A model generated the notes under the pieces. That model worked only from the letters and a program-made list of their open reading frames with translations, was not told where the DNA came from and ran no database searches. From IMG/VR virus record IMGVR_UViG_2609459804_000013: a DNA stretch of 8,852 nt; one strand, written 5' to 3'. Within the stretch, counting starts at the first letter, position 1; each line of letters starts with the position of its first letter. Position numbers and translations under genes: made by a program. The DNA is from a virus. Its lineage: Duplodnaviria; Heunggongvirae; Uroviricota; Caudoviricetes. Positions 3,323 to 4,979 of the stretch are shown one piece after another.

Positions 3323-4803
3323 TACCTGTATGGAGCACGGCCTGCCCGGACTGGGCAGAGCGCCTGAAAAAGGGGCTGTCGATTATTCCGGCTCCGATTT
3401 ATCCGGACCAGGCCGCACATGCCCTGGCGATTTTTAAACAACTGCGGATTGTGGATGCACCGGGGAGCCCGACGTTCGGGGAGTCCTGTGCACAGTGGGT
3501 GTTTGACCTGGTGGCGGCCCTGTTTGGCTCCTACGATGCGCAGACCGGTGTGCGCCATATCAAGGAAGTGTTCATTCTGATACCTAAAAAAAACAGCAAG
3601 TCCACGCTGGCCGCCGGGATCATGATGACGGCGCTGTTACTGAACTGGCGGCAGGCGGCGGGCTACACGATTCTGGCCCCGACTGTGGAGGTGGCAGCCA
3701 ACGCCTTCAATCCTGCCAGGGATATGGTACGACGGGACGATGATCTGGATGACCTCTGTCAGGTACAGACACATATCCGGACCATCACCCACCGGGTGAC
3801 GGACACCACCCTTAAGGTGGTGGCAGCCGATCCGAATACGGTGTCCGGTATCAAGTCCGTGGGTACGCTGATTGATGAGTTATGGCTGTTTGGCAAACAG
3901 TACAAGGCGGAGGACATGTTACGTGAAGCCATAGGCGGCCTTGCCTCCCGCCCGGAAGGGTTTGTGGTGTATACGACCACCCAGTCGAATGAGCCGCCTG
4001 CCGGGGTGTTCAGGCAGAAACTGCAGTACGCCCGGGATGTGCGTGACGGCAAAATTCATGATCCGCACTTTCTGCCGGTGATTTTTGAGCATCCGCCGGA
4101 GATGGTGGAGAGCGGTGAGCACCTGCTGATGGAAAACCTCGCCATGGTCAATCCGAATCTCGGTTATTCGGTGGATGAGGCCTTTCTGTACCGGGAGTAC
4201 CGTAAAGCCCGGGAAGCCGGTGAAGAGACTTTTCGCGGTTTCATGTCAAAACACGCCAATGTGGAAATTGGTCTTGCCCTGCGTTCTGACCGCTGGGCGG
4301 GGGCGGATTTCTGGGAGCAGCAGGGCAGGCGCATCAGTCTGGACGATATTCTGCAGCGTGCTGATGTGGTGACGGTGGGGATTGACGGCGGAGGGCTGGA
4401 TGATCTGCTGGGGATGTATGTGATTGGCCGTGACAGGGAAACCCGCGAATGGCTGGGCTGGGGCCATGCCTGGGCGCATGAAACCGCGGTGGTCAGACGG
4501 AAGAGTGAGGCATCCCGTTTTCAGGATTTTGTGGCCTGTGGAGACATGACCATTGTCCGTCGGGTCGGGGATGACACGGCGGAAGTGGCGGAGTATGTGC
4601 GTCGCATTCATGAGGCTGAGTTACTGGACCATATCGGTATTGACCCGTCAGGCGTGGGGCAGATTCTGGATTCACTGGCGGAAGCCGGGATCCCCGACGG
4701 AATTGTTGTGGGGATAAGCCAGGGCTGGAAGCTGGGCGGGGCCATAAAAACCACCGAGCGCAAACTGGCTGAGGGGTACTGGTGCATGGTGGTCAGCCAC
4801 TGA
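3319..4803 (+). CDS. Terminase large subunit (Terminase_1 / HK97-like family), prematurely terminated by an apparent single-base deletion near 4771-4781
   Basis: N-terminal ATPase region with Walker A-like ILIPKKNSKST; nuclease-domain-like C-terminal half (VVTVGIDGGGLDD...). Overall pattern is typical of Terminase_1 large subunits of roughly 550 aa. Confidence 0.88.
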   Translation: MIPVWSTACPDWAERLKKGLSIIPAPIYPDQAAHALAIFKQLRIVDAPGSPTFGESCAQWVFDLVAALFGSYDAQTGVRHIKEVFILIPKKNSKSTLAAGIMMTALLLNWRQAAGYTILAPTVEVAANAFNPARDMVRRDDDLDDLCQVQTHIRTITHRVTDTTLKVVAADPNTVSGIKSVGTLIDELWLFGKQYKAEDMLREAIGGLASRPEGFVVYTTTQSNEPPAGVFRQKLQYARDVRDGKIHDPHFLPVIFEHPPEMVESGEHLLMENLAMVNPNLGYSVDEAFLYREYRKAREAGEETFRGFMSKHANVEIGLALRSDRWAGADFWEQQGRRISLDDILQRADVVTVGIDGGGLDDLLGMYVIGRDRETREWLGWGHAWAHETAVVRRKSEASRFQDFVACGDMTIVRRVGDDTAEVAEYVRRIHEAELLDHIGIDPSGVGQILDSLAEAGIPDGIVVGISQGWKLGGAIKTTERKLAEGYWCMVVSH

Positions 4804-4979
4804 TGGCCTGGTGCGTTGGCAATGCCCGGGTGGAGCCCAAAGGTAATGCCATCCTTATTACCAAACAGGCCAGCGGGCGGGGAAAAATTGACCCGCTGAT
4901 GGCGCTCTTCAATGCGGTATCCCTGATGTCCCTGAATCCGGAGCCGAAAAAGAAAGAATATGCGGTTTTTTTCATATAA
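4782..4979 (+). CDS. C-terminal fragment of the terminase large subunit in the -1 frame
   Basis: Frame 3 reads ...GVLVHGGQPLMAWCVGNARVEPKGNAILITKQASGRGKIDPLMALFNAVSLMS, a typical large-terminase C-terminus; it joins the upstream frame if one G is restored in the GAGGGG run at 4771-4776. Confidence 0.7.
   Translation: MHGGQPLMAWCVGNARVEPKGNAILITKQASGRGKIDPLMALFNAVSLMSLNPEPKKKEYAVFFI

Follow-up and report, generated by a model that had tools for sequence, protein, structure and literature searches.

As deposited, the large terminase gene of the prophage examined here lacks a single base, and the gap is probably an artefact of the assembly consensus, in which two near-identical prophage copies would have been collapsed into one sequence. 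The window, that is, the whole stretch of DNA that was analysed, is the entire contig JNNG01000055.1 (8852 bp) of assembly GCA_000700545.1 from Escherichia coli 2-052-05_S4_C1. This strain is a gut isolate from a Tanzanian child (phylogroup B2, ST452, O81:H7), and its genome (sample SRS568206 for JNNG00000000; Table S1 of the cited study) is a 179-contig draft built from 100-bp Illumina HiSeq 2000 reads with MaSuRCA 2.3.2 (PMC6222053).

The contig corresponds to the late region of a lambdoid prophage, and its head and packaging genes are of the HK97 type. An Rz-like lysis gene (351-845), a gene for a TonB_C protein (1411-1737) and, on the minus strand, a gene for a DUF3950 protein (1869-2069) are followed by an intact gene for a 121-aa HNH endonuclease (2111-2476, plus strand; Pfam PF01844 HNH, E=4.8e-7), which is an accessory nuclease of HK97-type packaging modules and is found as an identical protein on at least 1000 contigs. 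A run of nine G, which varies from 7 to 9 G among relatives, lies at 2484-2492 in the spacer that separates this gene from the small terminase gene (TerS). The remaining genes, all on the plus strand, are TerS in two fragments (2766-3322), the large terminase gene (TerL) in two frames (3319-4979), an intact 645-aa fusion of prohead protease and major capsid protein (5043-6980; Pfam PF04586 and PF05065; identical protein on at least 1000 contigs) and a 454-aa portal gene, intact in its 'split' form (7192-8556; Pfam PF04860, E=1.7e-80; identical protein on 10 other contigs). The order HNH-TerS-TerL followed by head genes is shared with the HK97 module (HNH gp74, TerS gp1, TerL gp2), but, unlike in HK97, protease and capsid are fused in the window, and TerS and TerL are out of frame as deposited. 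At the DNA level, most of the window is 93-96% identical to lambdoid prophages of the Stx-converting type (for example phage JLK-2012 and Stx1a/Stx2a-converting phages), which have the same gene order and are often multi-copy, with up to seven per genome; in their records, however, TerS (564 nt) and TerL (1662 nt) are both intact. Among complete E. coli genomes the packaging module is found in one to seven places per genome.

TerL in the window measures 1661 nt, against 1662 nt in intact homologues. Of 5426 complete E. coli genomes, 1250 carry genes annotated as 'terminase large subunit' that align with it end to end at 90-97% identity, and every homologue alignment places a single 1-nt gap in the window copy, always at the same site. 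An earlier reading of the sequence alone had described the large terminase of a prophage with a 1-nt deletion, split near 4771-4776 and continuing in frame 3 with a typical C-terminus beyond a TGA stop; all of these elements are present where that reading placed them, and the deletion is borne out by the intact 1662-nt homologues. The frame-1 ORF (3319-4803, plus strand) encodes 494 aa, of which 486 are native and the last 8 aberrant; its product, deposited as KDT32368.1, ends in ...KLAEGYWCMVVSH at the premature TGA (4801-4803, plus strand), and no intact homologue ends at this point. Frame 3 has a TGA at 4770-4772 and is open from 4773, reading GVLVHGGQPLMAWCVGNARVEPKGNAILITKQASGRGKIDPLMALFNAVSLMSLNPEPKKKEYAVFFI up to the stop at 4979; the 68 C-terminal codons of TerL, including the auxiliary beta-hairpin region and a GKID motif, lie in this frame (4773-4979, plus strand). 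Restoring one base joins the two frames seamlessly, as had been proposed, into a protein of 553 aa. The frame break in the deposited TerL is thus more than a chance arrangement of two ORFs.

The identity of the missing base is a separate matter. At the affected site (4771-4778, plus strand) the window reads GAGGGGTA, whereas intact genes read either GAGGGAGTA (type B) or GAAGGGGTA (type A). The sequence-only reading had suggested that a G should be restored in GAGGGG, a motif that is indeed located at 4771-4776. That proposal holds for the repaired protein, as A or G restored at the gap gives the same 553-aa product (E-G-V), but is not supported for the base itself: because the flanking haplotype of the window is of the GAGGGAGTA type, the simplest description would be the loss of an A beside the G run, between GGG and GTA, not a contraction of the run. 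The nearest relatives are 97.8-98.7% identical to the window in DNA, with TerS and TerL intact in all of them, and in the closest relative with a 5-kb overlap (L024) the TerL gap is the sole indel.

The broken allele is unique to this contig. No match to a 44-mer across the gap was obtained in the 5426 complete E. coli genomes, nor to a 22-mer across the gap in 185,579 species-representative genomes (GTDB), and exact look-up of the 494-aa product returned no contig besides JNNG01000055.1; among those searched, no other contig, Logan assembly or genome carried this TerL lesion. The repaired 553-aa protein is also absent, by exact look-up, from about 15 billion proteins. Relatives retrieved through exact matches to the 65-, 80-, 454- and 231-aa products included none closer than about 98.7% in DNA.

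TerS is likewise out of frame on the same contig, with ORFs at 2766-3107 and 3059-3322 in place of the single 564-nt, 187-aa ORF of its homologues. The 5' fragment (2766-3107, plus strand) carries the PF03592 Terminase_2 domain at residues 2-59 and goes out of frame within the linker. The 3' fragment (3080-3322, plus strand; 80 aa as called, open from 3059) is identical to the C-terminal part of intact TerS proteins, and its stop overlaps the TerL start (ATGA). Between these two parts lies a frame-shifting linker (2975-3105, plus strand) of peculiar composition. Natural linkers, examined in 35 copies, fall into two discrete types without intermediates, type A (represented by L022 and L001) and type B (represented by L021 and L005), which differ at about half of their positions. 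In a three-way alignment, the linker of the window is a column-wise hybrid of the two: over window positions 2920-3120, 43 of the 78 informative columns follow type A, 34 follow type B and 1 follows neither. The hybrid switches between types 15 times in about 180 nt, with picks as short as a single column or a single gap (for example ...CCCCGGAAACAATCCGCAGATGACCGGCAAAGGTCATGTC...). Measured between shared anchors, it is 131 nt long, whereas the other linkers are 138 nt in 33 of the 35 copies and 137 nt in the other two. The best natural match to window 2930-3110 is only 86.7% identical, among about 2950 copies from complete genomes. No mutational or recombinational process known to us would switch between two alleles one column at a time. 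A hybrid of this kind would, however, be the expected output of a column-wise consensus over two stacked diverged copies, judging from how overlap-consensus assemblers behave. Being a hybrid with 15 switches, the TerS lesion is unlike a normal mutation and suggests a fault in the consensus of this contig.

The TerL gap falls exactly at a difference between the two types (GAAGGGGTA versus GAGGGAGTA). With unit edit costs, this site admits two alignments of equal cost, one with two mismatches and one with two offsetting gaps, and under the gapped alignment of GAAGGGGTA with GAGGGAGTA the window needs no private change. Since the TerL gap is the only indel relative to L024, the indels of the contig are confined to two sites of A/B conflict and are not scattered. 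MaSuRCA 2.3.2 reduces the reads to a small number of super-reads, which are handed to the Celera overlap-layout-consensus engine, and with assemblers of this design collapsed repeats can give consensus errors. The window shares with such errors the mixture of two alleles by column, what would be spurious net indels at the conflicts, and the type of assembler. That is, its sequence decomposes column by column into two alleles with the indels at the conflict sites, and the assembler is one that works by overlap and consensus and tolerates diverged overlaps.

We infer that the sequenced DNA held two related copies of the packaging module, one of type A and one of type B, and that the consensus step acted on them as follows. 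The Celera engine would have merged the copies, which would be a few percent apart, and made an independent call at each alignment column. The consensus would flip between the types wherever A and B differ, and for a difference that allows offsetting gaps it could leave both gap columns empty. At the TerL site, GAAGGG-GTA stacked over GA-GGGAGTA would thereby be read as GAGGGGTA, one base short, and the same process would leave a scrambled TerS linker 7 nt short. Under this explanation, reads at 4760-4790 should be split between GCTGAAGGGGTACTGG and GCTGAGGGAGTACTGG, with none showing GCTGAGGGGTACTGG.

The surroundings of the gap were compared with natural copies in the same way. Upstream of the gap, A-type gives way to B-type in the window between 4654 and 4697; downstream of it, single type-A bases stand at 4838, 4847, 4850 and 4883 in a type-B tract (4838-4883, plus strand), 62-108 nt from the gap. 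Neither flank was matched exactly among about 2930 natural copies, the best of which is 98.6% identical over 4560-4775 and 98.0% identical over 4777-4979, with differences at 4838, 4847, 4877 and 4883. The downstream type-A bases occupy sites that are polymorphic, some of them with more than two alleles, and may stem from a natural haplotype outside the sample. A mosaic test over the whole of TerL, in which the minimum number of exact-match tiles was counted after removal of any neighbour closer than the one nearest to the window, gave 17 tiles for the window against a range of 5-58, so that the window is no outlier and the test lends no support to blending across the whole gene. The window has no private substitutions, a count that does not discriminate, as it is also zero in several natural relatives.

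Lesions of TerL and of the head genes also occur in relatives. In the region homologous to window 4690-4775, just upstream of the gap, nine relatives (L008-L016) carry independent TerL lesions. All lie within 100 nt of the gap: four independent assemblies have a CAG-to-TAG nonsense change, three have lost one G in CTGGGC, and two from NCTC have a +A and a +G insertion; their clustering is partly due to ascertainment, as they were recovered by exact look-up of the 65-aa downstream ORF. In another, widespread prophage lineage (L121-L128; 59 index blocks), the capsid and portal genes are both split, giving 480 + 165 aa and 221 + 231 aa respectively, with TerS and TerL intact, and these lesions are real because they are common to many independent samples. 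Defective lambdoid prophages with inactivated morphogenesis genes are well documented in E. coli O157. Relatives of this kind resemble the window in having frame lesions in packaging or head genes, but their lesions are backed by independent assemblies, whereas that of the window is a singleton accompanied by a two-allele hybrid.

The main rival explanation, less likely than a collapse of two copies, is that a genuine 1-nt deletion inactivated TerL in a defective lambdoid prophage, either by loss of the A in GAGGG-A-GTA or by loss of a G after recombination. The ATPase would then be kept, and cos cutting and packaging would fail unless another prophage supplied the terminase. The deposited sequence leaves no doubt about the frameshift, and indel errors in an Illumina consensus are rare for single-copy DNA. 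Independent and clearly real TerL disruptions recur among relatives, 4 of 38 full-length copies (about 10%) being frame-disrupted in an IMG/VR sample that is unbiased for disruption, and split capsid and portal genes characterise entire, widespread lineages. TerS is out of frame too, as expected of a decaying module, and the deposited product lacks both the counterpart of HK97 D471 and the Pfam match to the nuclease. What speaks against a deletion is that the allele is unique to one contig, that the accompanying TerS lesion is a two-allele hybrid with 15 switches and no normal mutation, and that the gap falls precisely on an A/B difference open to alignment as offsetting indels; moreover, all other genes of the contig are intact, most of them identical to proteins on many contigs. 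A real deletion would show as GAGGGGTAC in essentially all spanning reads, at single-copy depth. It is improbable that both lesions are real, in which case gene conversion between co-resident lambdoid prophages, with patchy heteroduplex repair, would have scrambled the TerS linker and an independent slip would have removed the TerL base. The contig would then have caught a packaging module as recombination between prophages disabled it, and occasional -1 slippage on G GGG could give traces of full-length TerL.

The sequence-only reading had offered a choice between a homopolymer sequencing error and a real mutation, a choice that misses the option favoured here, namely a consensus error merging two diverged copies. 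We consider it very unlikely that the instrument miscounted the G run. The site does adjoin a run of 3-4 G, and the +A and +G homopolymer insertions nearby, which come from two PacBio-era NCTC assemblies, are possibly errors of that sort; but the present data are 100-bp Illumina HiSeq reads at isolate depth, and with Illumina systematic miscounts are not expected in runs of 4-5 bases such as this one. In addition, there are no other coding homopolymer indels over 5 kb relative to the nearest relative, and the nearest haplotype points to a missing A, not G. Sequencing that is indel-prone in general (454, Nanopore or PacBio style) was rejected as well, since the platform is Illumina and indels are found at two loci only. 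Least credible of all is that full-length TerL is made from the sequence as deposited, by programmed -1 ribosomal frameshifting or transcriptional slippage on G GGG. A P-site tRNA-Gly could re-pair from GGG 4774-4776 to GGG 4773-4775, which would restore the wild-type ...AEGVLV... sequence. The two-frame layout is not conserved, however, the roughly 2900 copies from complete genomes and our panel being in a single frame or carrying other lesions; the sequence G GGG TAC does not have the X XXY YYZ form of a canonical heptamer; and, against shuffled sequence, the next 100 nt show no excess of folding (z=0.02). With conservation, slippery heptamer and downstream structure all wanting, programmed frameshifting was excluded.

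The TerL_ATPase domain (PF03354, residues 65-224, E about 2e-11, above the curated cutoff) is found in both the deposited and the repaired product. The TerL_nuclease domain (PF20441) is matched only in the repaired 553-aa protein, at residues 275-535 (E=8.5e-10), and is lost from the deposited 494-aa ORF; that is, the three-acid nuclease domain lies in one frame only after the base has been restored. By phmmer, residues 85-534 of the repaired protein match HK97 TerL (PDB 6Z6D), a similarity that is distant (E=3.9e-10) but extends over the ATPase and the RNase H-like nuclease domains and includes the GxID motif of the last catalytic aspartate. In HK97 TerL the catalytic residues are D302, D388 and D471, and K463 follows the auxiliary hairpin (PMC9410871); an offset of 10 in the numbering of the 6Z6D chain is our deduction from the match of K463 and D471 to chain residues K473 and D481. 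D525 of the repaired TerL, in the GKID motif, aligns with D471. Were the deletion real, the shift after G486 would remove the hairpin region and the third catalytic aspartate and would be predicted to leave a nuclease-dead terminase.

In that case the statement that the terminase is dead, and the prophage hence cryptic, would hold, as the catalytic aspartate is lost. This conclusion of the sequence-only reading cannot be drawn from the present contig, however, because the TerS hybrid and the position of the gap at an A/B difference favour a consensus artefact. Whichever reading holds, there is nothing biologically new in it: a real deletion would add another to the well-known cases of defective lambdoid prophages with a nuclease-dead terminase. 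The case rather calls for caution, in that frameshifts in multi-copy prophage modules of short-read drafts, especially drafts from overlap-consensus assemblers, should be scored as pseudogenes or as signs of cryptic prophages only with the reads at hand. A column-wise hybrid of two alleles nearby can serve as a warning, for which the sequence alone suffices.

Some further variation was observed elsewhere on the contig. At the 3' end of the portal gene, a G run (GGGGG at window 8537-8541) is polymorphic among relatives. With five G, as in the window and in 28 of 46 copies, the portal ORF (7192-8556) is separate from a following 407-aa ORF (8553 onwards), a form that PGAP labels as 'frameshifted'; with six G (18 of 46 copies), the two are fused into one ORF of 861 aa. 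Both forms being common, the polymorphism could reflect natural variation in length or mark a recoding site. The 3' end of the window (8718-8852) falls within the first unit of a 162-nt tandem repeat inside the post-portal ORF, which in phage JLK-2012 has 3.3 copies with 95% matches (L006, 9187-9725). The contig probably stops at 8852 because this repeat exceeds the 100-bp reads, and the idea that the contig ends might be a sign of a second prophage was dropped on account of the repeat. Finally, the 74-aa ORF at 842-1066 has a 9-nt in-frame insertion (1039-1047) relative to phage vB_EcoS-569R3, and this 74-aa form is common, being present on at least 1000 contigs.
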